This document shows positions 10,198 to 63,481 of a stretch of DNA of 64,000 bases, in pieces (positions within the stretch are counted from its first letter, which is position 1; every line of letters starts with the position of its first letter). The stretch comes from a virus (lineage: Duplodnaviria > Caudoviricetes), in IMG/VR virus record IMGVR_UViG_3300029913_000001. One strand, 5' to 3'. Under the pieces are notes generated by a model. It saw only the letters and a list, made by a program, of their open reading frames with translations. It did not search any database and was not told the origin of the DNA. The translations under genes and the position numbers were made by a program.

Positions 10198-10848
10198 CTA
10201 ATTTAGTTTCAATTCATTAATGAATCGAGTTAATTCTTCTTTAAGGTAGCGTTGAACTTTTGGGTTCGATTTAACTTCAGCCGCCATTTCAAAAACATCA
10301 TCACCATTTTTACGGAAGTTACGCAGGCCTTCATATACAGGGATGGGGAACGCATTCGGAGCCGATGGCTGGGCGACTACATCAACAGTAACAATTTCAA
10401 AGTCGCTAACGTAACCACTACTCTCATTAACATTACCCGAACCGCGAGAACTAACCCCCAATTTACACCCACTCTCAAGAATAGTCTTAATAATATTACC
10501 CATTGGGGTAGGAATAATCTTTAATTTACCGCAGCCATTTGCACCTTCCATCCACATCGAGGAAATAGAGTGACTAATACGATCTATATTAATATTTAGA
10601 CCAGTTGGATGGTCTCCTTCTCCGAAAATTGGAGCCCCCGATTCAATCAAGGTATTCATCGCCGTAACGGCTCTTTTAATTTCTGTTACCGGATAAATTC
10701 TCTGATTATAGTTTCTAACATCGCCTTGAATGAAGATTCCCTTCATATACAGATCTTTTTGCTTCTGCCCAGACGCATTAACTGATTCTGCCACTTCAGT
10801 TATCATTGTTGCGGGATTTTGATATTCAAACAACGGAATCTTATTCAT
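10198..10848 (-). CDS. gp21: Prohead core protease (gp21 family)
   Basis: GIFIQGDVRNYNQRIYP, GEGDHP, LGVSSRGSG and DVVAQPSAPNA motifs. Confidence 0.95.
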   Translation of the reverse strand: MNKIPLFEYQNPATMITEVAESVNASGQKQKDLYMKGIFIQGDVRNYNQRIYPVTEIKRAVTAMNTLIESGAPIFGEGDHPTGLNINIDRISHSISSMWMEGANGCGKLKIIPTPMGNIIKTILESGCKLGVSSRGSGNVNESSGYVSDFEIVTVDVVAQPSAPNAFPIPVYEGLRNFRKNGDDVFEMAAEVKSNPKVQRYLKEELTRFINELKLN

Positions 10849-10897
10849 AGTATTACCTCTATTATTATTTATAGTATTACCTCTATTATTATTTATA
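10847..10897 (-). promoter_or_regulatory. Tandemly duplicated late promoter plus RBS (24 bp x2) upstream of gp21
   Basis: ATAGTATTACCTCTATTATTATTT occurs at 10847-10870 and 10871-10894; minus strand reads TATAAATA-ATAATAGAGG twice. Confidence 0.8.
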
Positions 10898-10931
10898 CAA
10901 TCTTATTAATTTAACTATCGGCGCAAAAAAT

Positions 10932-13688: not shown

Positions 13689-13913
13689 TTACATTACCCC
13701 GGCGCCGGCGGCTGGAGCTCCATATTGTCGTTGAATATCTTCTAGGTTTTGCTGCATTTCAAATTTACGAACATCATCAATTTTACGCAATTGATTAATA
13801 TGGCCGAGAGTTAAACGTACCTTTCTAAGATCGTTAAGACGAGGAATTTCTTGATCATCCTGCGGATTCTCATAGCCCTTATCATATTCGCCGAACATTT
13901 CATCTAGAATCAT
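13689..13913 (-). CDS. Small hypothetical head-module protein
   Basis: KVRLTLGHINQLRK...QYGAP; intact ORF downstream of the portal gene. Confidence 0.65.
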   Translation of the reverse strand: MILDEMFGEYDKGYENPQDDQEIPRLNDLRKVRLTLGHINQLRKIDDVRKFEMQQNLEDIQRQYGAPAAGAGVM

Positions 13914-13923: not shown

Positions 13924-14253
13924 TTAATTATTATCTATTTCTTTTTTAAATCGATCAATTTCATACTGAGCATCAATTAAATTAGTTTCATCTATTATCC
14001 AAGGATTGGAACTCATCGTAGTCCCATCAGATGCACTATTTGCCGCCTCTACTTGTTGAATCGATCCATCTATTGCTTTAAAAATTAATAATGCAGCAGA
14101 GTCTTCATATCCCGACCAATAATCAAAATAAATTATAGAATCTATTAAATCTATATCAGCGTCCGGCCAAATTTCTTTAATAGATTCTATATCGGTTAAT
14201 GAAATATTTTCGGTTATTTTTCGATATTTTTGTATTTCTTCTAATAAATTCAT
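13924..14253 (-). CDS. Small protein with MNLLEEIQKY leader
   Basis: ATG at 14253 after an AGGAAGG RBS; first 20 nt identical to the genes starting at 10189 and 9456. Confidence 0.7.
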   Translation of the reverse strand: MNLLEEIQKYRKITENISLTDIESIKEIWPDADIDLIDSIIYFDYWSGYEDSAALLIFKAIDGSIQQVEAANSASDGTTMSSNPWIIDETNLIDAQYEIDRFKKEIDNN

Positions 14254-16151: not shown

Positions 16152-16883
16152 TTAATCCTTCTGCGCGACTAACGTCATATTTTGCTCGACATATGTTCTA
16201 TCTTTGGTCAGTTGCTTCTTTTGCTTCGATAATTTATTATATTGATTCCATAATGCTGTTCTTTTTGGGATGTTTTTAAATTTCATGAACTCTGCCCATA
16301 TTCTTTTTTGTTCAGCTTCTAAAGATTTAAATTTTTTCTCATCGTATTCTACATCTGTATCATATAAATCAGTTTCACCAAATAAATCATGCTTGTCTAG
16401 ACTAATAGCCTCTTTCTTTTTATCATCCCATGCAAAAACTAAAATACCAGGAATCTTTGCTAATTTTTCCCAAATTGTTTTGCCACCTTTTGTCTGGGCA
16501 TCAGTTGACCACAATGTATAATTTTTATTTTTAATAAGATATGCATACACCGTTGTTGCTAAACCAATACCTAGGTAGGGAGTATCAACCGCGGTTTCTA
16601 CAATAGAATATGATTTTCTAAGTTTAATTAATTCAATAAATCCAGCAATTTTTTTATTAACGGTATCAAAAATTTGAATCATTTGAGTTGAATGAATATT
16701 AGAAATGCCTGGCTCTTCTCTAAAATATAAATCGAAACCCGATATATTTCCTAATTTAACTTTAATTTCATTTCCATTATCATCTTCATTAAAATCTGTA
16801 TAATCCCATCGATGCACTAAGGTAGTAAACATAGAGTGTTTTGCTGGCGGCGCGGATGCATATCTCAATTCATTTATTCTCAT
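16152..16883 (-). CDS. GNAT-fold acetyltransferase-like protein with MRINEL leader
   Basis: VDTPYLGIGLATTVY (acetyl-CoA-binding motif A) and STDAQTKGGKTIWEKL. Confidence 0.6.
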   Translation of the reverse strand: MRINELRYASAPPAKHSMFTTLVHRWDYTDFNEDDNGNEIKVKLGNISGFDLYFREEPGISNIHSTQMIQIFDTVNKKIAGFIELIKLRKSYSIVETAVDTPYLGIGLATTVYAYLIKNKNYTLWSTDAQTKGGKTIWEKLAKIPGILVFAWDDKKKEAISLDKHDLFGETDLYDTDVEYDEKKFKSLEAEQKRIWAEFMKFKNIPKRTALWNQYNKLSKQKKQLTKDRTYVEQNMTLVAQKD

Positions 16884-40413: not shown

Positions 40414-41622
40414 TTATTCAAAAAAATCAAAAAAGGTATTAATTTTACGAGTCCCTTCTTCTATTGCTTTCCATATTGGTAACTTTCCCAAGAGATTTTC
40501 TAACTTTTTATCTACCACCGCGGCAATCATTGCATCATTGTCAAATGGTAGTTTAGTAAACCAATCCGGTAGATGGGATTCATCTGTTGGATAAGCAACC
40601 GAAGTCATATTCAGTTGATTCTCTTTTAAAGGGCAAACCACACACTTCTGCCCATCAACGATACGAGTATGAACATTATCGTTATTCATTTTTCTTAATG
40701 AATTCCAATTAATTGCCGCTCTGACGTGTCCAGGAACTCGATTACCTTTTCCTTGTGCAATTTGGTCCGCATAAAATGTTAGCTTGTTGACACGCTTCGG
40801 TGTACCTTGCTCATGTAATGGCAATGCTTTAAACTTATCCTTGAATATATTAATTTTTGCTGTTAAATCATCAACTGTTTTACCTTGTAGTAAATCCATT
40901 AATATTTCACTTAAAAATTTCTGGCAAACTTCCGGGGTATCACTGCGACGCAAATCTAATCCCATTGCTTTTAATTTTAAATGATCGTCACCATAAAACT
41001 TACCATCTTTAAAATAATTAAGAATTGCATATCGTTTTTTAGTAATATATAAACCACGATAACCTACTGATTCGCAAGATGATTTAATTAATTGACCAAA
41101 TTTATCCGGACAATTATACGATCTCTTCATATAATCGGCGTAAGAATCGTTAACTTGCTCTCCAATCTTCAAATATAGCTGAACTGCAATATCTCGATTC
41201 CATTCAACTTGACCTTCATCTATCATATCTTTCATCACTGGCCAAGCCGAAAATTGAGTTGAATCTGTATCCCCATAATGAATTGCTCTTCCTAGATAGT
41301 TATATTCTCCAGTTATACATTCATTAACAAACGAACTCTGATGCCTTACAATTCCCCTACCGGTTAAAGTAACCGATTGCCCTACACGTTTGTCAAAAAA
41401 ACGAGAACTTGGTTGGAGCAGCGTTCCATATGTCGCATTGAGTAGGAGTTTTTTTGCGTGCTGCAATCCATCATAATATTCTACCTGTTTTTTAATTTCC
41501 GATATGTTTTTAGAAAAAATTTTTCCATTTCGGATTTCAAGATTATTATTTGTTATAAATTGTTTAATATCCGAGATATTTCCATTAACAAATAACTCCC
41601 GAAGTTTTTTTACTTCCACCAT
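40414..41622 (-). CDS. gp43: Family B DNA polymerase, C-terminal subunit
   Basis: Motif B KLLLNATYG, motif C YGDTDS, KKRYA and GLDLRRSDTP; own AAGGA RBS. Confidence 0.93.
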   Translation of the reverse strand: MVEVKKLRELFVNGNISDIKQFITNNNLEIRNGKIFSKNISEIKKQVEYYDGLQHAKKLLLNATYGTLLQPSSRFFDKRVGQSVTLTGRGIVRHQSSFVNECITGEYNYLGRAIHYGDTDSTQFSAWPVMKDMIDEGQVEWNRDIAVQLYLKIGEQVNDSYADYMKRSYNCPDKFGQLIKSSCESVGYRGLYITKKRYAILNYFKDGKFYGDDHLKLKAMGLDLRRSDTPEVCQKFLSEILMDLLQGKTVDDLTAKINIFKDKFKALPLHEQGTPKRVNKLTFYADQIAQGKGNRVPGHVRAAINWNSLRKMNNDNVHTRIVDGQKCVVCPLKENQLNMTSVAYPTDESHLPDWFTKLPFDNDAMIAAVVDKKLENLLGKLPIWKAIEEGTRKINTFFDFFE

Positions 41623-42803
41623 ATATGATCCTTATTATAATTATACTCAGATAATGGCATCATTACAACACCTATTTCCTTTAATGTTTTACCACCATAT
41701 ATTTCCGAAAACCTAATTCGTTCAGCAAATTTCCTTTTAGTGGTGCCGGGAATAACAAAATTTAGTATTGATAAATCCCTGGGACTATGATTTTGCAAGG
41801 CACACCGTGATTTCATATACTTTAAAAAATCACCAAGTAAAAAATAATAATTTTCAAAATTAGCAACAATTACTTTTTCCAATGATGTGCCCGCTACTCG
41901 ATAATATGTATTTGAAAAATCTTTCTTCCCGATTAATTTAAATTTTTTATCACGAATATCTAATACTCTTTTATTATTTGGATTATTCGCAGTTGCAAAC
42001 CCTTTATTTTTAAAAATTCTTCCTTCGATAAATCCTTCAGGACGTGGCGCATTTTCATTAATTCTTAAAGTTTCCCCGGTAGTATTATTTGACACCCATC
42101 TTGATTCTGTTATATATGAATAATCGGTGTGTTTTAACCAATCGGGGTATCCCTTAACAAACCCAGGTAAAATTTCATGCATTTGTGCTACTTCTCTCGT
42201 TTTAGGATTATACTGCCATATTTTACCAGTAAAATTCCGGCTGCATAAATCCTTTGACTCTTGGGTACGCACTCTACCTGTTTGAAAAGGCTCCCACTCA
42301 TCTGATTGAGATCCAATCGACATACGTAATAACTCTTTGGTTATTTTATGACGATAAATATTCGTATCCGCAAATAATTTCGACATATAATCACGCTGTT
42401 CTTGTGTTCGCACTTTCCCGGTATTATTTTCAGATATTAGTTTTGCAAATTCTATACGAACGGCCTGATATAACCGGCAGTTAGTAATTCCTCTAGATTT
42501 TGAGACACGGCGCATCTGATTAAATGAGTAAATACAACTGCGATCACGAATTGATTTAAATAATAGATAATGTAGAAGATAATGAGCTTTAGGTTCAACA
42601 ACGATAATATTCCAGGATTCATGCTTATATTCAGGAAATATCGCCACCGGCAAAATATGATGTTTCTCTACTGAACCCAAACCCGATTTGACTAAATCCT
42701 GCGGTAAAAATTTTAGCAATTTAAAATATCGAATAAATTGTCTTTCGTTTTTAACTTTTCCGGTATTGCGAAACATATTTTCCATGTAAAATAAATCGAA
42801 CAT
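41610..42803 (-). CDS. HNH homing endonuclease (Mob-like) between the polymerase halves
   Basis: EKHHILP...N...AHYLLHYLL, NUMOD-like RTQEQRDYMS repeats and GFxxGR motifs. Confidence 0.85.
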   Translation of the reverse strand: MFDLFYMENMFRNTGKVKNERQFIRYFKLLKFLPQDLVKSGLGSVEKHHILPVAIFPEYKHESWNIIVVEPKAHYLLHYLLFKSIRDRSCIYSFNQMRRVSKSRGITNCRLYQAVRIEFAKLISENNTGKVRTQEQRDYMSKLFADTNIYRHKITKELLRMSIGSQSDEWEPFQTGRVRTQESKDLCSRNFTGKIWQYNPKTREVAQMHEILPGFVKGYPDWLKHTDYSYITESRWVSNNTTGETLRINENAPRPEGFIEGRIFKNKGFATANNPNNKRVLDIRDKKFKLIGKKDFSNTYYRVAGTSLEKVIVANFENYYFLLGDFLKYMKSRCALQNHSPRDLSILNFVIPGTTKRKFAERIRFSEIYGGKTLKEIGVVMMPLSEYNYNKDHIWWK

Positions 42804-42835
42804 TTAATAATCCCTATATAATGTTTTTATCATAG

Positions 42836-42900
42836 TGAACTACCGCGATTCAATGCGTTCTAACGCACGTGAAGTACACACGGGCTTGACTCGTAAAGCC
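42836..42900 (-). other. Four abutting hairpins directly after the stop codon of the polymerase N-terminal half
   Basis: Minus strand: GGCUU/AAGCC, CGUG/CACG, UGCGU/ACGCA and UGAAU/GUUCA stems with 0-1 nt spacers. Confidence 0.65.
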
Positions 42901-42901
42901 A

Positions 42902-44557
42902 CTAAGAGGAAAGAGCATCAATTAAATTATCTGGTATCGTTATACCAAATGATAAATCTACAAATTCTTCTTTTTTTGCTTGTAGTTCTTTTCTTTCTGC
43001 ATACCATTTAGCTAATAATCCAGGAATAATCGCTTCTTGATCATAACTAAAAATTGTTCCGTTACCACTTAGCATCCATTTCTGATCGCTATAAAAAATG
43101 ATATCATAAATCTGAGAAGCTGAAAGAGTATCACTTGTACCTGTTGATTCCCAATCAATAATAATATCTACGCCAGGTTTTCGATCAATAACCGCCTGAT
43201 ATTCTAGAGTTGAAAAAACACCCTCCCACGCATGAGAATAAGTCATGCCTTTTTGTGACATTTTTTCAGCAACAAATGCCTCTGTAAGTGTGGGGCGCAA
43301 CTGTCCAATAATAGTTTCTATTCCCATGTTTAATGCACGAATTGTACTAGGATATAGTGAATTAATATCAATTACACCTAGCCATTCGTGAATTCCTACT
43401 TTTGGATCGGCTACATATGCGCCTACTGCGGCTGGCTCGTCATCGTCTTTCTGAGAACTATATTTTGGTTTATTTGGAACAATCATACCCAAATCATGGG
43501 CTCTATTAATAATAGCCTGGTCTGTTTTGGCTACGGTTCCCATACAAGTAGGTAAAAGAGTGGTTGTATCATGGGCGACAACATTAATAAGTTCAATAAA
43601 CTTTAATTTATTGTCTAACTGCTCCAATAGATTAACATCTTGCCTATTATATCTAATAAATAATTCAAAATCATTATTATATAAATCATCTAATGAACCT
43701 TTATATTCAGTCTTACTACTTCCTAATTCATATTCAGCAATAGAATTTAATGAATATGAATGACGTTCTTCATATGTGAATTTTCGGTATAAATCCATCA
43801 TATCGATATGAATCTTGCCAACTAATTCATACGTCTTAAATTCTTTACCATATTTTTCAACTACTTTAGCCTTTGGTTTTTCATTCCAGGATAATTCACA
43901 TAATCTACGAGTATCATCTTTACTCATCACTCGTTGGATTCGATTAACAAGATATGGAATATCGAATCCTTCGCTATTCCATCCTGATATAACATCGCTG
44001 TCTTCTAATATATCGAGAGCGGCATTAAGCATATCAACTTCATTATCGAACACATATGTGTTCTCGAATTTATTTGCTATACTCTGCCCCTCGTCGAAAG
44101 TAATAGTTTTAGGTGGAATTGCTACAGTAATTAGTTTATTACACCAAACTAGATCAATTGTAATTGCGGTTATTTTATTAAAGGGGTCCTCGATGGGCGA
44201 GTATCCCTTATCCTTATCGAAATCAACTTCGATATCGATAAGAGCAACATGAAGATCAGGAGCGGGCTTACCTTTATAATTTTCCGATAAACATTTAAAA
44301 GTAAGATTTAAATCTGACTCCCAAATCTTTTTATCTGTACCTTTAAGGATCGCTAGTTCTTTGTAAAATTCACTAGAAGTTTTAGGGGTAATTTTTGTTA
44401 GAGGCGTATTATAAATTGATTTATAAGACCCATTCGGATCATCGATATAGAAACTATAATCGACAGGATAATTATTGAACACTCTCTTGCCATTGACTCG
44501 TTCGATAACTTCAATACGATCATTCTTACGATCTATTCTAGCTGTAATATATGACAT
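42902..44557 (-). CDS. gp43: Family B DNA polymerase, N-terminal subunit (3'-5' exonuclease and motif A)
   Basis: DIEVD, GWNSEGFDIPY, YNRQDV, DINSLYPS and KWYAERK motifs. Confidence 0.95.
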   Translation of the reverse strand: MSYITARIDRKNDRIEVIERVNGKRVFNNYPVDYSFYIDDPNGSYKSIYNTPLTKITPKTSSEFYKELAILKGTDKKIWESDLNLTFKCLSENYKGKPAPDLHVALIDIEVDFDKDKGYSPIEDPFNKITAITIDLVWCNKLITVAIPPKTITFDEGQSIANKFENTYVFDNEVDMLNAALDILEDSDVISGWNSEGFDIPYLVNRIQRVMSKDDTRRLCELSWNEKPKAKVVEKYGKEFKTYELVGKIHIDMMDLYRKFTYEERHSYSLNSIAEYELGSSKTEYKGSLDDLYNNDFELFIRYNRQDVNLLEQLDNKLKFIELINVVAHDTTTLLPTCMGTVAKTDQAIINRAHDLGMIVPNKPKYSSQKDDDEPAAVGAYVADPKVGIHEWLGVIDINSLYPSTIRALNMGIETIIGQLRPTLTEAFVAEKMSQKGMTYSHAWEGVFSTLEYQAVIDRKPGVDIIIDWESTGTSDTLSASQIYDIIFYSDQKWMLSGNGTIFSYDQEAIIPGLLAKWYAERKELQAKKEEFVDLSFGITIPDNLIDALSS

Positions 44558-44918: not shown

Positions 44919-45509
44919 TTATATTGTATAGTGGAATTTATTCGGCATATTTTTCTTAATATCAAAATCTAAAAAATTATCTAATTGATTTTTATATTCG
45001 TCGTATGATACGGCTATATAATTTCCATGTATACATATTTCCATTGATTTTTTAAGAGCAATTTTAATATTTGTGTTATTGTATTTCAACGTCGATACAA
45101 ACTCTTCGGGCGACAAATTTTCTAACTCCTGCTTCGATAATTTAAGTTCTTCATGTAAATCAGCATACCGGCAAAAGGAAAAATCAAAACCATTAATGGG
45201 AAAAATAATATAAGGGTTTCCATAATACTCAGTTGAAAAATAGTCACTTGCGCAAAAAATACTATTTGATCGTAATGCCTTAAACCCGGCGGCACGCAAC
45301 TTACTATCAATTAACTCTTGCAAATCAAGAGTAGTATCCATCGGCTTTCTATTAATAGGTGATTGACCGTTAATTATAGATTTCTCCGATTTAATTCCTC
45401 GGAACAAAACCTTATTACATGAACGAAATATTTTTAAAATATTCGAGCAGTCTGATTCGATTATATAAGAAAATTTACTAAGAGACCCATCAAATTCTAG
45501 TAACTTCAT
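44919..45509 (-). CDS. ALRSNSIFC-family ART-like protein, copy 1
   Basis: MKLLEF leader; LFRGI, ALRSNSIFC, YGNPYIIFP and MEICIHG motifs. Confidence 0.7.
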   Translation of the reverse strand: MKLLEFDGSLSKFSYIIESDCSNILKIFRSCNKVLFRGIKSEKSIINGQSPINRKPMDTTLDLQELIDSKLRAAGFKALRSNSIFCASDYFSTEYYGNPYIIFPINGFDFSFCRYADLHEELKLSKQELENLSPEEFVSTLKYNNTNIKIALKKSMEICIHGNYIAVSYDEYKNQLDNFLDFDIKKNMPNKFHYTI

Positions 45510-45519
45510 TTTACCTTCC

Positions 45520-46377
45520 TTACTCGTCATCGTCTTGATCTTCATCACCTTGAAAAATAGGAACTTGCCCTAATAATTCTAATTGATCTGATTTTAACCA
45601 GCAACTCGATTCACAGTCATATCCGTACGTAAATTGTGTTGCTCCATCATAACCAGCATAACTATATGACCCGAAATTATAATGATGAATGCAATCAAAA
45701 TGCTTCTGTAATTCTTGCCAAGGAAAATCTTTTTTAATCAAATCATCCGGAGACCCGTATGATTTTATTCGTTCCCATTCTGCAGGATCTAAATATGCTG
45801 AATTACCACGGCCCAATTTTTCAAAAATTTCATAAATTATTTTTGCATCATCGGTTGAATCTAATTCATAAACTACAGTGTTCGGCTTAACCTTGTATAC
45901 ATAACCTATTTTACTTTGCCTAGATATTCCCAAATCTCCCATTCCATAGGCTTGTATAAATTTATTCCATCCGCTTGTCCACTTACCATTTGGTAATTTC
46001 TTAGCGGTACTTGTCCATAAAATTGCCCCAACTGGTTTATTATTTCCGGGTAATACCGGGGAGCCGCCGGCTATAACAGGAGCGCCCTCGTTTAAATTTC
46101 TAGACTCCATCGCAGTATCAATATAATTTTTCGCCCAATCGGTAAGATTCCCCTCATCGTCGTATGAATATTTTGCCCTATCTTTAAGTAAATAATCTGA
46201 TCTTTCTTTTTTCGTAGTATATGATACTGATTTTCTGGGTATAAAAAGCTGAAGTGTTCCGTTAGGAGCAACCGTAGTGCCATGTTTTTTGTAATATTCT
46301 AGGGATTCTCTAGCAGCTTCTATTGGATCATATATTGCTTCAATTTTTTTCTTTTTTGCAAATTCATCTATTCTCAT
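45520..46377 (-). CDS. Hypothetical protein with MRIDEF leader, possible ART-like C-terminal domain
   Basis: Internal LNEG site; LWTST...YGYDCES. Confidence 0.6.
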   Translation of the reverse strand: MRIDEFAKKKKIEAIYDPIEAARESLEYYKKHGTTVAPNGTLQLFIPRKSVSYTTKKERSDYLLKDRAKYSYDDEGNLTDWAKNYIDTAMESRNLNEGAPVIAGGSPVLPGNNKPVGAILWTSTAKKLPNGKWTSGWNKFIQAYGMGDLGISRQSKIGYVYKVKPNTVVYELDSTDDAKIIYEIFEKLGRGNSAYLDPAEWERIKSYGSPDDLIKKDFPWQELQKHFDCIHHYNFGSYSYAGYDGATQFTYGYDCESSCWLKSDQLELLGQVPIFQGDEDQDDDE

Positions 46378-46389
46378 TAAAATAGCTCC

Positions 46390-46543
46390 ATATCAATGAT
46401 ATATCGCAGGTAAGGCAGCGACATTCTAATAATCTATTACTCCATTAAGCGGCTACAACTCGATGATTACCATCAATTAAATAATCTTTTCTGTTCCATT
46501 ATTTAACAATAATATTGTTCACGTTAAACTCATCAAATCTCAT
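46390..46543 (-). pseudogene. Remnant of a ParB/Srx-like gene with MRFDEF leader
   Basis: One frame reads MRFDEFNVNNIIVK*WNRKDYLIDGNHRVVAA*WSNRLLECRCL, with two in-frame TAA. Confidence 0.65.
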
Positions 46544-46544
46544 T

Positions 46545-47011
46545 TCATACCTCGCCTGGAATAACTAAAATTTTCGGATATGGCTCAACCCCACATATTT
46601 TAGCTGCATTTAACCGAGTGTTCCCTGCCGTTAATACTCGTTGACCATAATGTTCTATTACCATCGCCATAGGAATTGCATCGTTATTTTCAAATCCTCT
46701 TGCAATTCTAAATGGATCTCTAACATAATCAGAATAATACAAACTTATATCTTGCATCATCTGCAAAGAACTACCATTTGTCAATCTAGAAATTGAATTA
46801 AAATTATCGTATGACAGACGTTCAATTTTGCCCCGTAAAACCGCTAGTTTAGCATTTTTCCAGGTAGACCAGCAATTAATATCTGGTAATCCAATTACAT
46901 CAGGATAATCTCTGTCATTTAAATGTTTGAGATCAAATTCTTTCCGCAACTCGGTATCATTAGGCAAACGCCAATTATCATAATGAATTTGTTTAATTTC
47001 AAAAGTCTCAT
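46545..47011 (-). CDS. ParB/Srx-like protein; 5' end frameshifted in a T-run
   Basis: PMAMVI...LTAGNTRL; ATG at 47011 overlaps the upstream TGA; one extra T restores MRLFEIKQIHYDNWRLP in frame. Confidence 0.65.
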
Positions 47012-47583
47012 ATAATTACTCCAAGCCAGTCTTGAAACCAATATGTTGAAAAAGAATTATAACGAACTGCTGCATATTTTCCATGAAGGTAAACTTCTAC
47101 TCCGGTATGCATAGCAAATCCTAAATCAGTATCTTTAAACTCCAAATCTTTAATAAATTTATCTGTTGACATATTTTGAATTTGAGGAACATTATATTCC
47201 ATTTCTTCTGTTAAATCTCGATATTTGCAATATGTATAATCGAATCCGTTAACTGGAAAAATTACATATAAACTTCCGCCATCGGCGTATGCTATAGCAT
47301 CATTCTCCCGACCCGTGCAAAAAATACTATTTGATCGTAATGCCTTAAACCCGGCCGCTTGTAACTTGTCGTCGATGGCAAATGATAAAAATCTAGGAGT
47401 ATCTCTTGGCAAACGATTTACTGGTGACTCGTCAATTAAATACTTCTCGGAACTCGCTATTCCTCGGTATAAAACTTTTCTATTCTCGCGATACAGCACC
47501 AAAATATCAGAACACTTTTCTTTAATGAAAGAAATTATTGCATCATTACCGCTTCCCGAGTTATTGATTTCTGTTAATCTCAT
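47008..47583 (-). CDS. ALRSNSIFC-family ART-like protein, copy 2
   Basis: MRLTEI leader; LYRGI, ALRSNSIFCT and VEVYLHG motifs. Confidence 0.75.
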   Translation of the reverse strand: MRLTEINNSGSGNDAIISFIKEKCSDILVLYRENRKVLYRGIASSEKYLIDESPVNRLPRDTPRFLSFAIDDKLQAAGFKALRSNSIFCTGRENDAIAYADGGSLYVIFPVNGFDYTYCKYRDLTEEMEYNVPQIQNMSTDKFIKDLEFKDTDLGFAMHTGVEVYLHGKYAAVRYNSFSTYWFQDWLGVII

Positions 47584-48587
47584 ATCTTACCATCGCAGGC
47601 CTTAACAATGTTACTTTGACTCTTACGTCCGATCCGATAAAATTCATCGGCGGTTAACCATTTTGTTTCACTAACTTCAAAACCAGGTTTATCAAAATCT
47701 ACGGGATCGGTTACTTCCCCAATAAAAATAGTCATCTCACTGGTTTCTGTATATCCTGTTATTTCACCTTTCCAACCAATCTTAACGGTGTTAGAAATCA
47801 AATTTGAAGGTCTCAACCCGCATTCTTCGTTTGCTTCTCTAAGCCCTGCTTGCATTTCGTTTTCACCAGCATCAACATGCCCCTTTGCAATCATGGGCTT
47901 GTCCCCACCATACGACGGATCGCTGCTAATAACAAATAACATTCGAGCTACGCCGTTATTATCTCGGTAATACGGAATAAATCCGGCTTTTTTAATTTGG
48001 CTACGATCCCAAGCTTCTTCTAAGTTATTGGACATCGTACCTTTTAATTCACATTCAGCACAACAAAATTTCTGGTCAGTCGAATGAATATTTTTAAATG
48101 TTATTCCACAAACTGGACATTTTTTATCAACTGTTTTATCCGCATTTGCAAATTCATTATACGTTAAACTTTCTTGTACAAGATCCCTCTTTTTCATTTT
48201 ACGCATAAAACCATCTGGGCGATGAAGGAAAGACGAAATGAGATCTTCCTTCTTACTTCCAATATTGCCACCCTCAGCAAATGTATTGGCGATTTCTGTA
48301 GCCGCATTAACTATATCATTCATTGTTAATTTACGAGGTTTTTTTCCTCGCAATTCTTCCCACATTAGATACATAAAATCCGAAGGATCATCATATATCT
48401 CAGCTAATACTTTTTTATTAGTCATATTAATTCTCGAACATCCCATAAATTTTGTACTTAAAATTTTTGATTTCTTGGGCTCAGCACCTAAAATAGGGCC
48501 GAGCTCGTCAACTTTATCTTGTGGCCCGAGCCACTGAGAATTTCTATACGATTTATCAGATCCTAAAATTGTTTTTTTCTTTTTCAC
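47580..48587 (-). CDS. Multi-module protein with C-terminal Nudix hydrolase
   Basis: Nudix box GHVDAGENEMQAGLREANEECGL; CPVC...CCAEC zinc finger; modules separated by LAEI, VQES and LEEA. Confidence 0.8.
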   Translation of the reverse strand: MKKKKTILGSDKSYRNSQWLGPQDKVDELGPILGAEPKKSKILSTKFMGCSRINMTNKKVLAEIYDDPSDFMYLMWEELRGKKPRKLTMNDIVNAATEIANTFAEGGNIGSKKEDLISSFLHRPDGFMRKMKKRDLVQESLTYNEFANADKTVDKKCPVCGITFKNIHSTDQKFCCAECELKGTMSNNLEEAWDRSQIKKAGFIPYYRDNNGVARMLFVISSDPSYGGDKPMIAKGHVDAGENEMQAGLREANEECGLRPSNLISNTVKIGWKGEITGYTETSEMTIFIGEVTDPVDFDKPGFEVSETKWLTADEFYRIGRKSQSNIVKACDGKI

Positions 48588-49525
48588 TATTTCACCAAAC
48601 TTAAAAAGTCAAATCGTCGTCTTGCGGCTTCGTAGCAATCGTTATCTATTGCAATGTAAGCCCCATGCACCCAAACATCTTGCCCTTTACTCAACGCCCA
48701 TGCTAAATCAGTATCATAAAATTCATTCACCCGCATATATTCTTCTACTATATCTGGGTTAGTTGGTTCTAAATTAATCTTTTCGGATATTTTATCAGCC
48801 TCTTCTCTAAATTCTTCAAATATAGGATATTTTTGCACCAAAATATAAAACTCTTTTAATATTTTATTTATTTTGCCGCGGATCTGATAAATCGTATGGT
48901 AATTCTGTATAATAGTACCTATAGTGTAGGCATCTTTTAAAAATTTTTTTACTTTTATATCTGAACTAGCTATCGTATTGAATTGTTTTTTATAAAATGC
49001 AGACTCTAGTATCTGGTCTATTATTAACCTATGCACATGCGTTTTTAATTCAACTAAAGGACATATATACTCTCTGGCAGTAGTCCAGGTCCATCTTTTA
49101 CTATACCCAAAAGTAAATCCGTTAATAGGTAATATTAGAAAAACTCGGCCCCAGGATCCGGCATCAGAAATGCTTGAAGTGCAAAAAATACTATTACTAC
49201 GCAATGCAGTAAATCCAGAAGATGACATACAATAATCTGCATACTTAACGGCCTTCGCGATTTCATCGTTAGCCAAACGCTGTTCGATACTTTTTCGTTT
49301 TGCTGGAGGATATCCCATAAAAATGGTTGATCCACCCGAAACGCCTTTTATCCCTCGATATAGATAATTATCAGATTCTTTTGCATCTTTTAAAAATTCA
49401 GAGCAATTTTTAAAAATCCATTTTTCAATTTTGGCTAGCTCAGTCGCGGCCGAGGTATAGTTAATCGAAGAAAATGTATTCGGCTTCAGCATAGCGGGAT
49501 CCGGCATTAACTCATTTATCAACAT
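48587..49525 (-). CDS. ALRSNSIFC-family ART-like protein, copy 3
   Basis: MLINEL leader; LYRGI, ALRSNSIFCTS and QDVWVHG motifs. Confidence 0.75.
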   Translation of the reverse strand: MLINELMPDPAMLKPNTFSSINYTSAATELAKIEKWIFKNCSEFLKDAKESDNYLYRGIKGVSGGSTIFMGYPPAKRKSIEQRLANDEIAKAVKYADYCMSSSGFTALRSNSIFCTSSISDAGSWGRVFLILPINGFTFGYSKRWTWTTAREYICPLVELKTHVHRLIIDQILESAFYKKQFNTIASSDIKVKKFLKDAYTIGTIIQNYHTIYQIRGKINKILKEFYILVQKYPIFEEFREEADKISEKINLEPTNPDIVEEYMRVNEFYDTDLAWALSKGQDVWVHGAYIAIDNDCYEAARRRFDFLSLVK

Positions 49526-49553
49526 GTTTTACTCCTATTCCCTATATCTTGAT

Positions 49554-50192
49554 TTAGTCGAATTCTTCATTTTCTGGGTTATACTTAACCGGTAGACCCT
49601 TAAAATCATCGGCATTAATTTTGGTTTCTTCATGCTTAATAGCAACATAAGCGCCGTGAATCCAAACATCATAATGATTAATTAATGGCCATTGCAAATT
49701 AGTATTGTATAATTCATTGTAATCTAAAAATTCTTCTACATGTTCTGCATTCATCATTCTAGGACGAATATTATATGCGCACGCATTACAATTAGTAAAA
49801 GCCTTACTATATCCAAATGTAAATCCATTAATAGGATATATTTCATATACCTCTCCCCAAGATCTCGCCGCCCCGGTAAAAGAATTACAAAAAATACTAT
49901 TACTTCGTCGAGCCGGCCATCCCGCTAACTTGAGAAGAAAATCAACCTTCTCCGCGGCCTCTGTTGAATAATATTCAACCGTAGGTCGATTTTCCCTAGA
50001 ATAGCCAATAAAAGATTCTCGGGTTTCGTTCTTAATACCGCGATATAATTTATAATCACCCGCAACAGATAAAAATTCGGAGCAATGCTCAACAATCCAG
50101 GATTGCAATTTATCCGATTTATATCTAGCAAGAGATAATTGCTGTCCGGGTTTTAGCAAATCAACTCGATTTAAAATTTCATTTAACCGCAT
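49554..50192 (-). CDS. ALRSNSIFC-family ART-like protein, copy 4
   Basis: MRLNEI leader at 50192; LYRGI, ARRSNSIFC and YDVWIHG motifs. Confidence 0.75.
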   Translation of the reverse strand: MRLNEILNRVDLLKPGQQLSLARYKSDKLQSWIVEHCSEFLSVAGDYKLYRGIKNETRESFIGYSRENRPTVEYYSTEAAEKVDFLLKLAGWPARRSNSIFCNSFTGAARSWGEVYEIYPINGFTFGYSKAFTNCNACAYNIRPRMMNAEHVEEFLDYNELYNTNLQWPLINHYDVWIHGAYVAIKHEETKINADDFKGLPVKYNPENEEFD

Positions 50193-50364
50193 TTTTTCTC
50201 TTCTTCCTATGTCGTTTAATCGGAGAATAAATTGATGAATTAGGGTCACCGCCAAAAAACTGTCCAGCCGGAGGTGTACCCATTGGGCTATTAACAGTTG
50301 ATATAGATCCAGAGCTTGTTCCCCCGCTTGATCCATTTTCTCGAATTATGTCTTTTATCTTCAT
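50179..50364 (-). CDS. Small Gly/Ser-rich protein with MKIKDIIRE leader
   Basis: ATG at 50364 just after an ATAAATA late promoter; basic C-terminus. Confidence 0.6.
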   Translation of the reverse strand: MKIKDIIRENGSSGGTSSGSISTVNSPMGTPPAGQFFGGDPNSSIYSPIKRHRKKRKNAVK

Positions 50365-50372
50365 ATTAATAT

Positions 50373-50804
50373 TTATCGTTTTATTGTTGAACGAAGGAAC
50401 CAAGCAAATTTTTCTTGGGAATCGATTAATCCTTGCACGAAATTTTGTAACCCTAATTGATCGGGTGCCGATGCGTTAACTTCATTAAGAACTTCTATTA
50501 ATTTTTCATTATCAATCAACAATTCTTGAATCATTTCTTGCGCAGGTAAAATACCAGCAAAATCAGATAACACCGATAATCCCATTATTTGTTGAAGACC
50601 GAGGGGAGTAAAAATATCAAGTGCTCGCATCTCTTCTCCAATCCCATCATAGGCAGTATCAACCGATTCATATATGAGTTGTAATAATTTATGCAATTCA
50701 TAAAATCTCGGGCCAGTAATATTAAAGTGTGCAATATGAACCTTAATTGTATAATGTAACACCGTAGCAGTCGCTACCGCCAGCACTTCCTCTAAATTTT
50801 TCAT
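50373..50804 (-). CDS. dps: Dps/ferritin-like protein
   Basis: HFNITGPRFYELHKLL...D.IGEEMRAL...EKFAWFLRS. Confidence 0.88.
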   Translation of the reverse strand: MKNLEEVLAVATATVLHYTIKVHIAHFNITGPRFYELHKLLQLIYESVDTAYDGIGEEMRALDIFTPLGLQQIMGLSVLSDFAGILPAQEMIQELLIDNEKLIEVLNEVNASAPDQLGLQNFVQGLIDSQEKFAWFLRSTIKR

Positions 50805-50889
50805 TTAATCTCCTATTTTGAAAATTGAATCTTCTGCTTTTCATTTAATTTAGAACTAATCTTCCAATGTTTTAATTGTATATTCGGCA

Positions 50890-51153
50890 TCATGCCAGTT
50901 GCCCATCCTTGGCATCCATAATTTTAATAACTCTGGATAATATTTCAGTTTTTATGTCAGAGTTATTCCAATCTTTATCAACAAACAGATAAAATGGTTT
51001 CCACTTATTACCAATTATTTGCATGATTACCGTACCAATTTCCCCAAAACCTTTACAATACCCAGATAATACATACACCGAAATTTTTGAACCGTTAGTT
51101 AATTTTCCAGTCCATTTAATTTTGTTCGAATTGTTAATTTCATTTACTCGCAT
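50890..51153 (-). CDS. Small protein with MRVNEI leader
   Basis: Leader motif; intact ORF in the operon. Confidence 0.5.
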   Translation of the reverse strand: MRVNEINNSNKIKWTGKLTNGSKISVYVLSGYCKGFGEIGTVIMQIIGNKWKPFYLFVDKDWNNSDIKTEILSRVIKIMDAKDGQLA

Positions 51154-51179
51154 AGTTATACTGCTTTTAAAATTTCTGA

Positions 51180-52232
51180 TTATTTCTTTAGACCAAAATA
51201 TTTACATAATAATTTGTCATAATTAATTTCTAGAATATCCTGTCTAATTGCTACATAATGCCCACAAATACATACCTCATTCCTCGTTTTCATTGCTTGA
51301 TCAAGATTATTAGTACGTATGTTATGATATTTTAAAAAATTATTTGATTGTTGCTTACGATCACTTGCCTGCATAATAAGTTTGTACGCGGTTTTTATGT
51401 TGGCGGATGAAATTGAATTCAACTTATATTTTTTAGCAATCTTGCAATAGGTATCTAACGTTGTTTTAATTTTTAATAATTCTTTATTCATGCTAGCTAA
51501 GACATCGGCTGTGTCGTAGGCATCAAAAAATCTAGCATCTGACCAATATTCTTCAATACTTTCTATTATTCTACCGTCCGTTCTTGATAGTTCGGAAAAA
51601 TCTGGAAAGGCTACGGAAAAACTCCTCAATAAAGTTAATAATTTTTTAAATTCTATATTGCTATCAATTATATCATCCACAGATATTTCCCAATCTTCAT
51701 GCTTACTCCAGGTATATGAAAATCCATCACAAGGAAAAATACAAAATATATGCCCATAACCATCTGCACCCAGACTGTTACTTATACAAAAAATACTATT
51801 TGATCGTATTGCCTTACAACCACCAAGCGATAATAATTCATCCACATTTTTTTGAATTTTTTTCGGAGTATCCAATGGACGTCTATTCAATCGTGAAGCA
51901 CCTATAAAATAAACCGTTTTGGGATCTATATCTCGTGATCCGCGATATAATAATGAACTTGATTTTTTCATGTATCTTAAATATTCACTACAATTCTCCT
52001 CTATAAATCGGCAAACTTTTAAAAATCGAAGTTTATCTTTATCCCGCATTGATGCGGGATAAAGATTTAGCAATATTTTCTTGCTAGGCGTTAAATTTGC
52101 ACTAAATAAGTCGCCTTCTACCGTTGATCCCGGTTTTAATTTCTTATAATTTTTCATAGGTAATTTACCCACTCTCTTAATCTTTTTCGTGATTTTAATC
52201 TCAGTTATCTTATTGTATGAATTAATAATCAT
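51180..52232 (-). CDS. ALRSNSIFC-family ART-like protein, copy 5, with helical insertion
   Basis: LLYRGS, AIRSNSIFC, YGHIFCIFP and NEVCICG motifs; start uncertain. Confidence 0.7.
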   Translation of the reverse strand: MIINSYNKITEIKITKKIKRVGKLPMKNYKKLKPGSTVEGDLFSANLTPSKKILLNLYPASMRDKDKLRFLKVCRFIEENCSEYLRYMKKSSSLLYRGSRDIDPKTVYFIGASRLNRRPLDTPKKIQKNVDELLSLGGCKAIRSNSIFCISNSLGADGYGHIFCIFPCDGFSYTWSKHEDWEISVDDIIDSNIEFKKLLTLLRSFSVAFPDFSELSRTDGRIIESIEEYWSDARFFDAYDTADVLASMNKELLKIKTTLDTYCKIAKKYKLNSISSANIKTAYKLIMQASDRKQQSNNFLKYHNIRTNNLDQAMKTRNEVCICGHYVAIRQDILEINYDKLLCKYFGLKK

Positions 52233-53826
52233 TTTTAGCAATTCTCTCATTTTTATTAACAGATTCATTAAAATCATTTGCTGCTCTCTGCCGATAATCA
52301 GTTGGCACATTAATTGTCTTCTTACCATGACAATATACGCATTTTTTCTTCTTGCCATTTATTAATGTAAATCCTTTTCCATCGCATCGAAGGCAAGTTA
52401 GCTGCGCTTCACTTATCTCTAAACCCGGAGTATCATTGGAGTTTATTACTTCATTCATCCCAATTTTAATTATTTTATCGAGTAAGGTTTTATTATTTAA
52501 TGCCACAGCTATATATTTTCCATGAATATAAACCTCAAACATTTTATTCAATGCATCGGTTAAAAAAAGATTAGTAAAACCATATGTTTGTGTGAATTCC
52601 CTGGCCGGCATATTAATCGAATCATTAACAAATGAATTATCACTATAAGTATTGTCTTCATTAAACAAAACGTAGTGTAATCCAAATTTTCCTGTTAAGT
52701 CAAGTGCTCTTCTACACCAGGTATATGAAAATCCATTTAAAGGAAAAATAACATATACTTTTCCGTGATTAGTCTTATCATGATCATTACTATAATTACT
52801 GGCAATCAACTTATCCGACGTACAAAAAATACTATTTGATCGTAATGCAGTAAATCCAACTTTGGATAATGCCGAATCCAATAATTCCGATGCTTTCTCA
52901 TTTGAATCTACCGGCATACGATTTTTAACTTCTTTCCCAAATAAAATAGGTTCGACCGAATGAATACCACGATATAAAAAATCATGATCTTTATAAATTT
53001 GCAAAATATCTGTGCAATTAGTTTTAATAAATCTAACTATTCTATCTTCTTGATTAGGCGTCATACTTTCTTTTAAACTTTTAAAATATTCGACCTCGCC
53101 TTCATGTTTTGCGTCAGCTCTATGACTATCAAAAGTTCCGAGATTCTTACCTTTATGGGAAAGCAATCGATATTTTCCATTCTTTAATTTAACAATATGT
53201 TCGTCTAATTTTGGCGGGGATAATAATACTCGATCGAGTATTACTTTTATTTTATTAACTTTCGTAGATTTAGGGTATAACTCTTGAATGATTTGATATC
53301 TGTCTGTTTCAGAGCCGTTTGCATACATTTCACGAATCTTACTAGCAGAGCTAATATTCTGGCCAAGTATTTTATATTGTATTGCTGGAACAACTACATA
53401 ATAGGCATGCTTATCAAATGTCTGCAATGGAGTAGTAGATGAAACTGGATATGGCTGCATATACGAAAGTTCCCCATTTTTCTTAATAGGAGAACCAAGG
53501 CGATCTCGATCTTTCGATGATAAACCAAAAATTAAAACGGTATTTGCTGAATCATATTTTCCAGTTATTTCGGTAGATTTATACGGACTTACTACTTCAA
53601 CAAATTTATCTTCAGGAACTCCTGCTTGCGCAGCTAAAAATCTCTTCTCTGCAAATGAAAATGGTCGCTCAGACATTTTATTTGAACTAGCCACATATAA
53701 ATCTGCCTTTGGAAATTTATTTTTAAGATAATTATATACTGCGGTATGCCCAGCCGACCATGGGTGAAATCCACCGGGAAATATGCAGAGCTCGTGATAT
53801 CTAGTTTCAAATTCAGAAAGAAGCAT
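52222..53826 (-). CDS. Polyprotein-like fusion: HIGH-type nucleotidyltransferase + small basic domain + ALRSNSIFC ART-like domain (copy 6) + zinc finger
   Basis: IFPGGFHPWSAGH; EHIVKLKNGKYRLLSHKGKNLGT; LYRGI/ALRSNSIFCTS/FEVYIHG; CLRCDGKG...CVYCHG. Confidence 0.75.
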   Translation of the reverse strand: MLLSEFETRYHELCIFPGGFHPWSAGHTAVYNYLKNKFPKADLYVASSNKMSERPFSFAEKRFLAAQAGVPEDKFVEVVSPYKSTEITGKYDSANTVLIFGLSSKDRDRLGSPIKKNGELSYMQPYPVSSTTPLQTFDKHAYYVVVPAIQYKILGQNISSASKIREMYANGSETDRYQIIQELYPKSTKVNKIKVILDRVLLSPPKLDEHIVKLKNGKYRLLSHKGKNLGTFDSHRADAKHEGEVEYFKSLKESMTPNQEDRIVRFIKTNCTDILQIYKDHDFLYRGIHSVEPILFGKEVKNRMPVDSNEKASELLDSALSKVGFTALRSNSIFCTSDKLIASNYSNDHDKTNHGKVYVIFPLNGFSYTWCRRALDLTGKFGLHYVLFNEDNTYSDNSFVNDSINMPAREFTQTYGFTNLFLTDALNKMFEVYIHGKYIAVALNNKTLLDKIIKIGMNEVINSNDTPGLEISEAQLTCLRCDGKGFTLINGKKKKCVYCHGKKTINVPTDYRQRAANDFNESVNKNERIAKNDY

Positions 53827-53836
53827 TTATAAATCC

Positions 53837-54805
53837 TCAGTTATATTTATGAAAGAATGGCCCAAGAATAAGATCCCCTTCCTGTGAATACAATTCTTTA
53901 TTAATTTGTAAAATCCATTCAGGCGCAATGTTCTTTCTTCTATAATTTTTTAAAAATAAATGTGTTTCTATCGGAATATCACCGTAAACCTGCAATACAC
54001 CTAGCATTCGATGTCTACCTTCATGATCTATAACTTTAGCTGCACTTCTAAAATTTAAGTCTTCCCAGTTACTCGGAATTTGGATACTTAAAAATGGGCT
54101 TCCAATAGAATTACCATTTTTAATATATTCTCGCATATTATCTACCGAATCAGAAAAATGTGAGAAAGACGGTGTCAATGACAAAAATGAGCTCGGCTTC
54201 ATTGCTACCCGCAACCCAAAATAATCTATATCTTCATTATTGGGAGTTGCACCGGCACCTCTCTTATTATCTATTTTAACTTCCTCAGATATATTCTTTG
54301 AAAATATTTTTGATAACTTTTTAAATGTATTTTTAACGCCCGAATCTTCGTATAATATTCCGATTCCACCCGCAACATTCCAGGATTTAATATTATCATC
54401 CAAATCGTCGATTAATATATTACTATTCCCAACGTATTCATCTTTATTAAAAGCAAAAATAGCGGGAATACCCCCTAAACCATTCTTTTTTAACCATAAC
54501 TTTTTCCCTGCTATACATTCTTCTGTATTAGGAGGGCCCACGGGACGGCTTAAAAAAATATATGGAATTTTTCTATTGTCGAACCAAGCTAATAATTTTT
54601 TTCCATTTGGCATCCATTCTAAATTTGCAAAGAATTTCTTAATGTCGCCGTTATTAATAACATTGCTCCAATACTTATTGTTCCATCCATAGGATTCAAA
54701 TTCCTCTAGCGTAAGATGATTAAAATCAGCCGCGCCCTTAGCACAATCTGCCAGACACCCATCTAGATCTATAAATACTTTGCGTTCGATTTCAGAAATT
54801 CTCAT
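53837..54805 (-). CDS. Fusion of HAD 5'(3')-deoxyribonucleotidase-like and ParB-like domains
   Basis: FIDLDGCLAD and ILIDD (HAD); linker ISEE; DHEGRHR (ParB-like); late promoter near 54811. Confidence 0.75.
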   Translation of the reverse strand: MRISEIERKVFIDLDGCLADCAKGAADFNHLTLEEFESYGWNNKYWSNVINNGDIKKFFANLEWMPNGKKLLAWFDNRKIPYIFLSRPVGPPNTEECIAGKKLWLKKNGLGGIPAIFAFNKDEYVGNSNILIDDLDDNIKSWNVAGGIGILYEDSGVKNTFKKLSKIFSKNISEEVKIDNKRGAGATPNNEDIDYFGLRVAMKPSSFLSLTPSFSHFSDSVDNMREYIKNGNSIGSPFLSIQIPSNWEDLNFRSAAKVIDHEGRHRMLGVLQVYGDIPIETHLFLKNYRRKNIAPEWILQINKELYSQEGDLILGPFFHKYN

Positions 54806-54841
54806 ATTAATATTTATCCAATAACTCGATTAGCAACAAAT

Positions 54842-54874
54842 AAAAAGCCTATCATGATTCATGATAGGCTTTTT
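54842..54874 (-). terminator. Intrinsic terminator
   Basis: AAAAAGCCTATCATGA-T-TCATGATAGGCTTTTT. Confidence 0.85.
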
Positions 54875-54893
54875 ATACTGTTATTTTTACTTT

Positions 54894-62892: not shown

Positions 62893-62921
62893 ATTATAAT
62901 TGATTTTATGCCGAATGTCAA
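62893..62921 (-). promoter_or_regulatory. sigma70 consensus promoter for the helicase gene
   Basis: TTGACA-17 nt-TATAAT. Confidence 0.9.
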
Positions 62922-63481
62922 GCTATTAATTCCTTGATAAGTGCATTGAATTTTTCTTCCGCCAAGAACATACATTTTCCAGTAATTAGTATTTCATTAC
63001 CTGATGTAGTTGCCTTTAACAAATTATCCTGCCTAAATGAATATAACGAAGTAAACTCGTTGGGATCCATGTCTATAATTTTAGGTGCGTATTTTGAATA
63101 TTTGCCCTGATCATAATTCGTATATAAATCTTGCATCGTTTCTGACCATGTGAACTCGAAGTTATTGAATGGGAAGGTTATGAAAATTTTTCCATATCTA
63201 TTTGCCACAGATCTTTTATTTGTGCAGAAAATACTATTCGATCGTAGAGCCTTAAATCCTGCTGCTGATAATTTTTCATCAAATATTTTTTGTTGTTTAA
63301 TAGAAAATGACATTGGGTGCCTATCGGCAACCTTAGAAATAATAAACATATTTTCTAATCGGTGTGATCCGTGATAAAGAAATTCACCCGAAGATTTGTA
63401 GAAATCAACAATTTGAGAGCAAGATTTGCTGATAAATTTTTTAATATTATTGAGGTCTGGAGTAATTTCAAATTCTCTCAT
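62918..63481 (-). CDS. ALRSNSIFC-family ART-like protein, copy 7
   Basis: LYHGS, ALRSNSIFCT, YGKIFITFP and NEILITG motifs; TAATG coupling to the tail fibre gene. Confidence 0.72.
   Translation of the reverse strand: MREFEITPDLNNIKKFISKSCSQIVDFYKSSGEFLYHGSHRLENMFIISKVADRHPMSFSIKQQKIFDEKLSAAGFKALRSNSIFCTNKRSVANRYGKIFITFPFNNFEFTWSETMQDLYTNYDQGKYSKYAPKIIDMDPNEFTSLYSFRQDNLLKATTSGNEILITGKCMFLAEEKFNALIKELIA

Follow-up and report, generated by a model that had tools for sequence, protein, structure and literature searches.

Why do so many products of a single gene array in a giant phage genome begin with nearly the same six residues? The array occupies positions 44919-54805, on the minus strand, of a 64,000-nucleotide stretch of the IMG/VR virus record IMGVR_UViG_3300029913_000001 (this whole stretch is called the window below), and the shared leader has the consensus M-[R/K/L]-[I/L/V]-x-[E/D]-[I/F/L]. 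The source phage is an uncultured giant relative of T4, with a DNA polymerase fragment (42902-44557) approximately 43-45% identical to those of Sinorhizobium phage Phosso, Pseudomonas phage PA5oct and Agrobacterium phage Atu_ph07, which are Rak2-related jumbo phages of the T4 superfamily; a megablast search with the array found no match in the phage collection. The interval is best explained as a single late transcription unit of 13 genes and two decayed ones. We favour, as a reasonably probable answer, a cargo array, expressed late, in which the products bear a short head-targeting tag resembling those of T4 and its Alt protein; the products themselves are probably enzymes loaded in the head for delivery to the host. 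From the upstream end, the array contains:

53837-54805, minus: leader MRISEI (start 54805); HAD 5'(3')-deoxyribonucleotidase in residues 1-175 (phrog_2643, 3e-18) plus a 147-aa domain
52222-53826, minus: leader MLLSEF (start 53826); cytidylyltransferase-like N-terminal domain (HxGH, ISSxxxR), a phrog_11975 domain resembling ADP-ribosyltransferases (ART-like), and a CxxC zinc ribbon
51180-52232, minus: phrog_11975 paralog whose leader is degenerate (MIINSY) and whose start overlaps the stop codon upstream
50890-51153, minus: leader MRVNEI (start 51153), kept in orthologs; 87-aa protein without assigned family
50373-50804, minus: ferritin/Dps-like (Pfam PF00210, 2e-10), without the six-residue leader; syntenic in relatives
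50179-50364, minus: leader MKIKDI (start 50364); 61 aa, Gly/Ser-rich with a basic tail; ATAAATA at 50376-50370, 5-nt spacer
49554-50192, minus: leader MRLNEI (start 50192); phrog_11975 ART-like paralog
48587-49525, minus: leader MLINEL (start 49525); phrog_11975 ART-like paralog with a helical insert
47580-48587, minus: Nudix hydrolase (Pfam PF00293) plus zinc ribbon, without the six-residue leader
47008-47583, minus: leader MRLTEI (start 47583); phrog_11975 paralog, the one modelled below, predicted ART fold
46545-47010, minus: 140-aa open reading frame (ORF) with leader ATG at 47010 (MRL..EI); leader codons frameshifted by one base
46378-46543, minus: remnant of a decayed gene with leader MRFDEF (start 46543); a 14-codon ORF, then two in-frame TAA
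45520-46377, minus: leader MRIDEF (start 46377); 285-aa protein, second family with a predicted ART/RES-like fold
44919-45509, minus: leader MKLLEF (start 45509); phrog_11975 ART-like paralog, last gene of the array

All ten leaders quoted in the preliminary description of this DNA are present, each on the minus strand, and MKIKDI at 50364 adds an eleventh; that description had placed them on enzymes, and eight do stand on intact genes, while MRFDEF and MRL(F)EI stand on broken ones. The distant copies it reported are likewise in the sequence, namely MRFKEL at 782, MRASEF at 1193 and MRINEL at 16883, with looser versions at 13913 (MILDEM) and 63481 (MREFEI). The three closer matches belong to the following genes:

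16152-16883, minus: MRINEL leader gene, 243 aa, flanked by a large tail-type gene and the portal gene
782-1165, plus: MRFKEL gene with a GTG start, leader match
1193-1648, plus: MRASEF gene with a weak Tpt1/KptA hint; ATAAATA at 1181, 5-nt spacer

Counted across the window with the pattern M-[RKL]-[ILVFMA]-x-[ED]-[IFL], the leader matches 12 of 71 gene starts compared with 2 of 392 internal Met (p = 5e-9). It opens 9 of the 13 array genes and none of the 27 genes in the block for replication, nucleotide metabolism and DNA modification (19.2-44.9 kb; p = 3e-6), so the proposed difference in frequency between late and replication genes holds within the window. The common leader is real and far above chance.

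The leader was followed further in a set of 59 related IMG/VR contigs (945 kb), picked around phrog_11975 so that the share of that family is inflated. The strict leader begins 113 of 934 non-redundant ORFs there, compared with 0.18% of internal Met, and removal of their first eight residues leaves 28 families of tagged proteins, with phrog_11975 supplying 75 of the 113. That large share, together with the six array genes assigned to phrog_11975, is what mere inheritance among paralogs of one expanding family would produce, an explanation that we hold to be very improbable indeed and reject as sufficient alone: 27 more families without detectable similarity carry the leader, among the tagged proteins is a HAD nucleotidase that has untagged homologs, and the second predicted ART-fold family is tagged as well.

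Of the 113 leaders, 101 have I or L at position 3; at position 5, 98 have E and 15 have D; and all have I, L, V or F at position 6. The leader appears to be selected at the protein level, as a portable N-terminal tag, because Arg is written with five codons and synonymous codons vary, K/R, I/L/V/F and E/D interchange, and conservation ends after residue 6. It is kept in phrog_11975 homologs of 30-40% identity, in which the next 10-60 residues are free in length and sequence, and in 41 of 43 homologs of the 285-aa family, where a variable linker follows it. The leader is also an add-on, since it is absent from most HAD nucleotidase homologs, which begin directly at the first strand (MYTIYCDMDG); is replaced in two divergent members of the 285-aa family by a different, longer leader (..RKLINLIE followed by S); and was lost in a fusion. 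In the last case a pair of tagged genes in relatives corresponds to the fused gene 53837-54805, which has one leader and a relic of the second, its 147-aa second domain being a separate leader-bearing gene in the related contigs.

The connection between leader and virion comes from Atu_ph07, where the phrog_11975 family was found by tblastn (4e-16; ~40% identity) and where a tandem array, gp53-gp62, has starts of the form M-R/K-W-x-Q/D-L-x-E. ORFs from the whole Atu_ph07 genome were matched by molecular weight and gene order to the published virion proteome (Attai et al. 2018, PMC6102473 Table S5), using a leader pattern generalised from both phages, M-[RK]-[WLIVFY]-x-[QDE]-[LIF]. The virion proteome includes 24 of the 27-29 leader ORFs, most of them with 7-31 peptides, compared with 116 of about 685 other genes (17%); the enrichment has a Fisher p of 3e-15 overall and of 5e-8 to 6e-7 without the array. 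The equivalent leader predicts virion presence in Atu_ph07. Neither the leader nor its link to the proteome appears in the Atu_ph07 paper, which annotates gp53-gp63 as hypothetical (PMC6102473), and our literature search found no description of such a leader in the Rak2/PA5oct/Atu_ph07 group. Genes gp53-gp63 resemble the array studied here in protein family, tandem layout, equivalent leader position and T4-type late-promoter motifs upstream; they differ in having an eight-residue leader, M-R/K-W-x-Q-L-x-E, with a separate L-x-E8, and share only ~40% identity.

A T4-type head module, recognised with Pfam and PHROGs, lies on the minus strand of the window, and five otherwise unrelated ORFs in or beside it begin with a second, longer leader, MNL[LI]EEIxxYxxxxxE followed by S or G:

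5319-6503, minus: major capsid protein (PHROGs)
6515-7582, minus: scaffold-like gene (PHROGs)
7656-7970, minus: second-leader ORF
7973-8464, minus: second-leader ORF
8481-9041, minus: second-leader ORF
9458-10189, minus: second-leader ORF
10198-10848, minus: T4 gp21-type prohead core protease (Peptidase_S77; Pfam PF03420, 6.9e-23)
13924-14253, minus: second-leader ORF
14288-16045, minus: portal (PHROGs)

The Peptidase_S77 protein is presumed to be the processing enzyme for the six-residue leader. Scaffold-like gene and protease enclose four of the second-leader ORFs, and the fifth lies directly downstream of the portal gene; their Atu_ph07 analogues (gp33, gp206, gp594; MS..RK[FY].NI..ES) are virion proteins. 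By its form, the second leader looks like a targeting class closer to the capsid-targeting sequence (CTS) of T4, probably for core or internal proteins. In the Ralstonia phage RsoM2USA (L087, 159396-171725), the neighbours of a phrog_11975 homolog start with MTTFKEYLLE, MRLKQFLME, MKFSDYILE and MNQTFKQFLTE, which appear to be another lineage-specific variant of the leader. This variant is close to the T4 CTS. ORF257 of RsoM2USA, within the same cluster, is among ten abundant virion bands (PMC8504454).

What such a leader might do is suggested by T4, whose gp21 cleaves after hydrophobic-x-Glu (PMC5694885, PMC9026906) and whose packaged ART, Alt, loses exactly six residues at ITE-6, in addition to a C-terminal propeptide (PMC5694885). 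The leader in the window contains a hydrophobic-x-Glu of this gp21 type in residues 3-5, a possible cleavage site like Alt's. Array and Alt are alike in a very short N-terminal leader, ending in hydrophobic-x-Glu and then a hydrophobic residue, on an enzyme of (here predicted) ART fold; in a phage with a gp21-type protease; and in late expression, which is predicted here. They are unlike in that the enzyme domains here have no detected homology to Alt, in the many paralogs here compared with one gene there, and in that cleavage and packaging are known for Alt and predicted for the array. The 10-residue CTS that T4's internal proteins IPI-III carry (Mullaney and Black 1996, via PMC9026906, PMC3012670) offers a second parallel: one N-terminal tag on otherwise unrelated, fast-evolving, non-essential proteins, with a pair of acidic or amide residues set between two hydrophobic ones that are three apart, admits diverse proteins to the head. 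In IPIII, the residues that matter most are 4 and 7 for targeting and 8 and 10 for processing (PMC9026906). The array differs from this system in a leader of six residues rather than ten, without a separate processing half; in a cargo of enzymes of 60-530 aa, where that of T4 consists of small basic proteins; and in the second, longer leader class on head-module genes. The ejection proteins of phiKZ-like phages (SPN3US, phiKZ), which also have a gp21-related protease, are comparable in that many head-internal proteins have a short motif after whose Glu they are cut, and are delivered to the host (PMC5694885); there, however, the propeptides run from tens to more than 100 residues, the motif is S/A/G-x-E, the cargo includes a virion RNA polymerase, and the phage lineage is a different one.

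We therefore consider the six-residue leader as a candidate protein-level tag equivalent to the T4 CTS and nearest to the six-residue propeptide of Alt. Its two hydrophobic residues, three apart around the Glu, would dock the new protein on the prohead scaffold core; the tag may next be trimmed by the S77 protease of gp21 type, which would cut after Glu5, at hydrophobic-x-Glu; and the cargo (two predicted ART-fold families, the nucleotidase and the nucleotidyltransferase fusion) would stay in the head and enter the host with the DNA. Core docking, cleavage, interior location, injection and enzymatic activity are steps that we infer. The preliminary description had already proposed a portable N-terminal tag, which agrees with the gp21-site shape of the leader, its spread over 28 families in the related contigs, the encoded gp21-type protease and the late motifs of the array. 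Its wider idea of a plug-in system, in which the tag would suffice to package a foreign protein, has indirect support in the gain, loss and exchange of leaders among homologs; the concept itself was established earlier for T-even phages, in which a conserved CTS admits diverse fast-evolving proteins (PMC3012670, PMC9026906).

An unlikely but serious alternative is that the tag brings proteins to the virion and is either uncleaved or directs them elsewhere than the head interior, as an assembly tag or as an address for the neck, tail or surface fibres. The Atu_ph07 data report virion association only, the leader of the window has no second hydrophobic-x-Glu after position 5, unlike the L-x-E8 of Atu_ph07, and in T4 the targeting residues are distinct from the processing residues (PMC9026906). 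Set against this alternative are the hydrophobic-x-Glu of positions 3-5, which resembles ITE-6 of Alt (PMC5694885), the soluble enzyme folds of the cargo, which are not structural, and the gp21-type protease that the phage encodes.

The array boundaries and start regions contain these transcription signals:

54840-54876, minus: intrinsic-terminator-like hairpin with a 17-bp stem, at the upstream boundary of the array
54811-54817, minus: T4-type late-promoter-like ATAAATA, 5-nt spacer to the ATG at 54805
53844-53850, minus: late-promoter-like ATAAATA, then Shine-Dalgarno GAGGA, before the ATG at 53826
44907-44879, minus: near-perfect sigma70-type promoter (11/12), at the downstream boundary
44592-44564, minus: near-perfect sigma70-type promoter (12/12), at the downstream boundary

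The terminator (54876-54840) is thus followed by GATAAATA at 54817. Further copies of ATAAATA occur at 50376 (minus) and 1181 (plus), and the four late-promoter motifs claimed earlier for this DNA (54817, 53850, 50376 and 1181) are all present. Within the array, sigma70-like sites occur at the chance level (58 found, 61 expected); the two sigma70 promoters at 44907-44564 start the next unit, an 86-aa gene plus the DNA polymerase. With a terminator before it, T4-type late motifs at its head and inside it and sigma70 promoters downstream, the array appears to be a discrete late unit. In three peat metatranscriptome runs, 151-nt contigs match pieces of the array at at least 99% identity and low depth; we did not use these as evidence of expression, because DNA carry-over is possible and they contain no transcript starts. 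Upstream of the protease gene, a late-promoter-like element with its ribosome-binding site is duplicated in tandem (10865-10900, minus), with TATAAATAATAATAGAGGTAATAC occurring twice, 24 nt apart.

The spacing of the late motif brings in another candidate explanation. In structural genes of the window ATAAATA precedes the ATG by about 15 nt and is accompanied by a Shine-Dalgarno site; in three tagged genes (54805, 50364, 1193) the distance is exactly 5 nt. Among genes of the related contigs, ATAAATA lies at most 45 nt upstream of 32% of leader genes compared with 10% of others, and the arrangement ATAAATA-N5-ATG is found at 24% of tagged genes compared with 2.7% of others (p = 5e-14). By the rule for T4 late promoters, TATAAATA spans -13 to -6, on which basis transcripts from ATAAATA-N5-ATG would start on the A of the ATG and be leaderless. 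The conserved first codons could be a nucleic-acid signal, either the initial transcribed region or 5' end of a leaderless late mRNA or an AT-rich translation-initiation region, and the peptide would be functionless. Besides the 24% figure, this agrees with the 67 ORFs that have ATAAATA-N5-ATG, among which 28 carry the strict leader and about a dozen near variants, and with the over-use of ATA at codon 3. We nevertheless think it improbable, given that most leader genes have an ordinary Shine-Dalgarno site and no adjacent promoter, that five Arg codons are used, and that Glu/Asp and Ile/Leu/Val interchange. Atu_ph07 argues in the same direction: nucleotides and spacing differ there, and the physicochemical pattern and the virion association are kept. 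Its leader genes have promoters 16-25 nt upstream plus a Shine-Dalgarno site, with TGG at codon 3, and the peptide pattern is therefore independent of ATAAATA-N5-ATG.

A more tentative suggestion, which we regard as possible though doubtful, is that late promoter, start codon and six leader codons together form a portable cassette of ~30 bp, ATAAATA-N5-ATG-ARA-ATH-NNN-GAA-ATH. Such a cassette may combine a leaderless late mRNA and a head-targeting tag, so that any ORF coming to lie behind it would become late, packaged cargo, and recombination at cassettes may swap the two leader classes between families. If so, it would be a built-in gene-capture system and would account for how large the arsenals of ART-fold and other enzymes are in giant phages related to Rak2/Atu_ph07, and how fast they change.

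The cargo proposed for the favoured tag reading is less varied than first described. The preliminary description spoke of unrelated enzymes, which is overstated: matches to phrog_11975 occur in six array genes (44919-45509, 47008-47583, 48587-49525, 49554-50192, 51180-52232 and the C-terminal half of 52222-53826), and another gene belongs to a second predicted ART-fold family. A seventh phrog_11975 member lies elsewhere in the window, at 62918-63481. The AlphaFold model of 47008-47583 has a pLDDT of 89.9, with leader residues 1-9 disordered (pLDDT < 50). Foldseek against PDB returned nothing significant for this model, and in VIA-align nearly all of the 40 best matches have the ART fold: BC2332 (Z 6.6, rmsd 3.8, 130 aligned), Arr (Z 5.4), cholix toxin, exotoxin A and diphtheria toxin (Z 4.3-4.7), and also DarT, Tpt1, PARPs and AcrIF11. 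The phrog_11975 paralogs are accordingly modelled as having the ART fold, although a Pfam scan gave no match of these paralogs to an ART model. Their alignment places R40 (in YRG) at a conservation of at least 90%, N85 and S86 as invariant and S84 at at least 90% (ALRSNSIF), and an E/D in the strand before an HG motif; these R, S-N-S and E residues are candidates for an R-S-E triad.

The 285-aa protein (45520-46377; model pLDDT 82.9) has no sequence-family match in Pfam, also at permissive thresholds, and searches of Atu_ph07 and of the cultured phage records gave no match to its family. Its model aligns with MbcT (Z 6.8, rmsd 5.2, 142 aligned), ParT (Z 5.6), members of the diphtheria-toxin family (Z 4.5-5.2) and PARPs. 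Invariant residues of its family are W121, T122, S123 and E256; R48 and T124 reach a conservation of at least 90%. From the matches to MbcT, ParT and diphtheria-toxin relatives and the conserved R48/WTST/E256, it is therefore predicted to represent a second ART/RES-like family, unrelated in sequence to phrog_11975. On these models the array appears dominated by two ART-fold families, accompanied by the HAD nucleotidase and a cytidylyltransferase-like domain, the latter in the N-terminal 230 residues of 52222-53826 (Atlas score 0.94, TM 0.78). Of the activities listed earlier, ARTs (as a predicted fold) and the HAD nucleotidase can be retained, and a Nudix hydrolase is present but untagged. GNAT, 2H phosphoesterase and ParB fall away: Pfam at permissive thresholds gave only sub-threshold values of 0.097 for GNAT on 16152-16883 and 0.07 for 2H phosphoesterase on 782-1165, both genes outside the array interval, and no ParB hit on 46545-46967 or the C-terminal domain of 53837-54805. 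The suggestion that much of the cargo acts on NAD or nucleotides stands at the family level only.

Several points weigh against a processed, packaged and injected cargo. Three intact array genes, the Nudix gene, the Dps-like gene and the paralog at 51180, have no clear leader. The link to virions comes from a single relative, Atu_ph07, at ~40% identity, whose particles were purified with polyethylene glycol and whose proteome also lists RecA-like, SSB and RNR proteins. With 5-6 residues the leader is shorter than the 10-residue T4 CTS and is without a separate processing half, and the cutting of the leader would follow by analogy with T4. The ART assignments are based on modest structural scores (Z 3-7). 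Finally, a quarter of the leader genes in the related contigs have ATAAATA at a distance of exactly 5 nt from the ATG, so transcription or translation initiation could account for part of the conservation seen in the first codons.

If the tag reading is correct, a simple sequence rule picks out the injected arsenal of a mostly uncultured giant phage group, an arsenal dominated by NAD-using ART-fold enzymes and containing dozens of candidate host-takeover or anti-defence effectors. The T4 targeting principle would extend to a six-residue form, and Atu_ph07, which is cultured and has proteome data, would allow cargo loading in jumbo phages to be tested directly. Being six residues long, the tag could also serve as a compact means of bringing proteins into large capsids.

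Some array genes show features of their own. The two decayed tagged genes adjoin within 46378-47010 (minus); at 47010 the MRL..EI codons are one base out of frame with the ORF 46545-46967, at a run of four T. Their side-by-side position suggests that the array is turning over, and an assembly error at the homopolymer is also possible. The 61-aa ORF at 50179-50364 (minus) consists largely of a Gly/Ser-rich peptide, GTSSGSI.TV...GQFFGG, that recurs in tagged proteins of relatives, either C-terminally or right after the leader (contigs L060, 11646-12461, and L057, 11894-12613). The Nudix ORF begins with another conserved module of ~60 residues, MKKK..LGS.KP[YF]R.P..LGP.DKV, which also occurs in two proteins of related contigs, one of 1153 aa (L060, 13363-16824) and one of 262 aa (L028, 9216-10004), and is a third shared N-terminal module.

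Two further observations concern the rest of the window. The family B DNA polymerase is seemingly split across consecutive ORFs (40414-44557, minus), ORF 42902-44557 containing the N-terminal part only; the DNA polymerase of Atu_ph07 is likewise split, into gp276 and gp277 (PMC6102473 Table S3). Directly downstream of the major capsid gene lies a 512-aa homing-endonuclease-like ORF (phrog_314, HNH tail; 3624-5162, minus).

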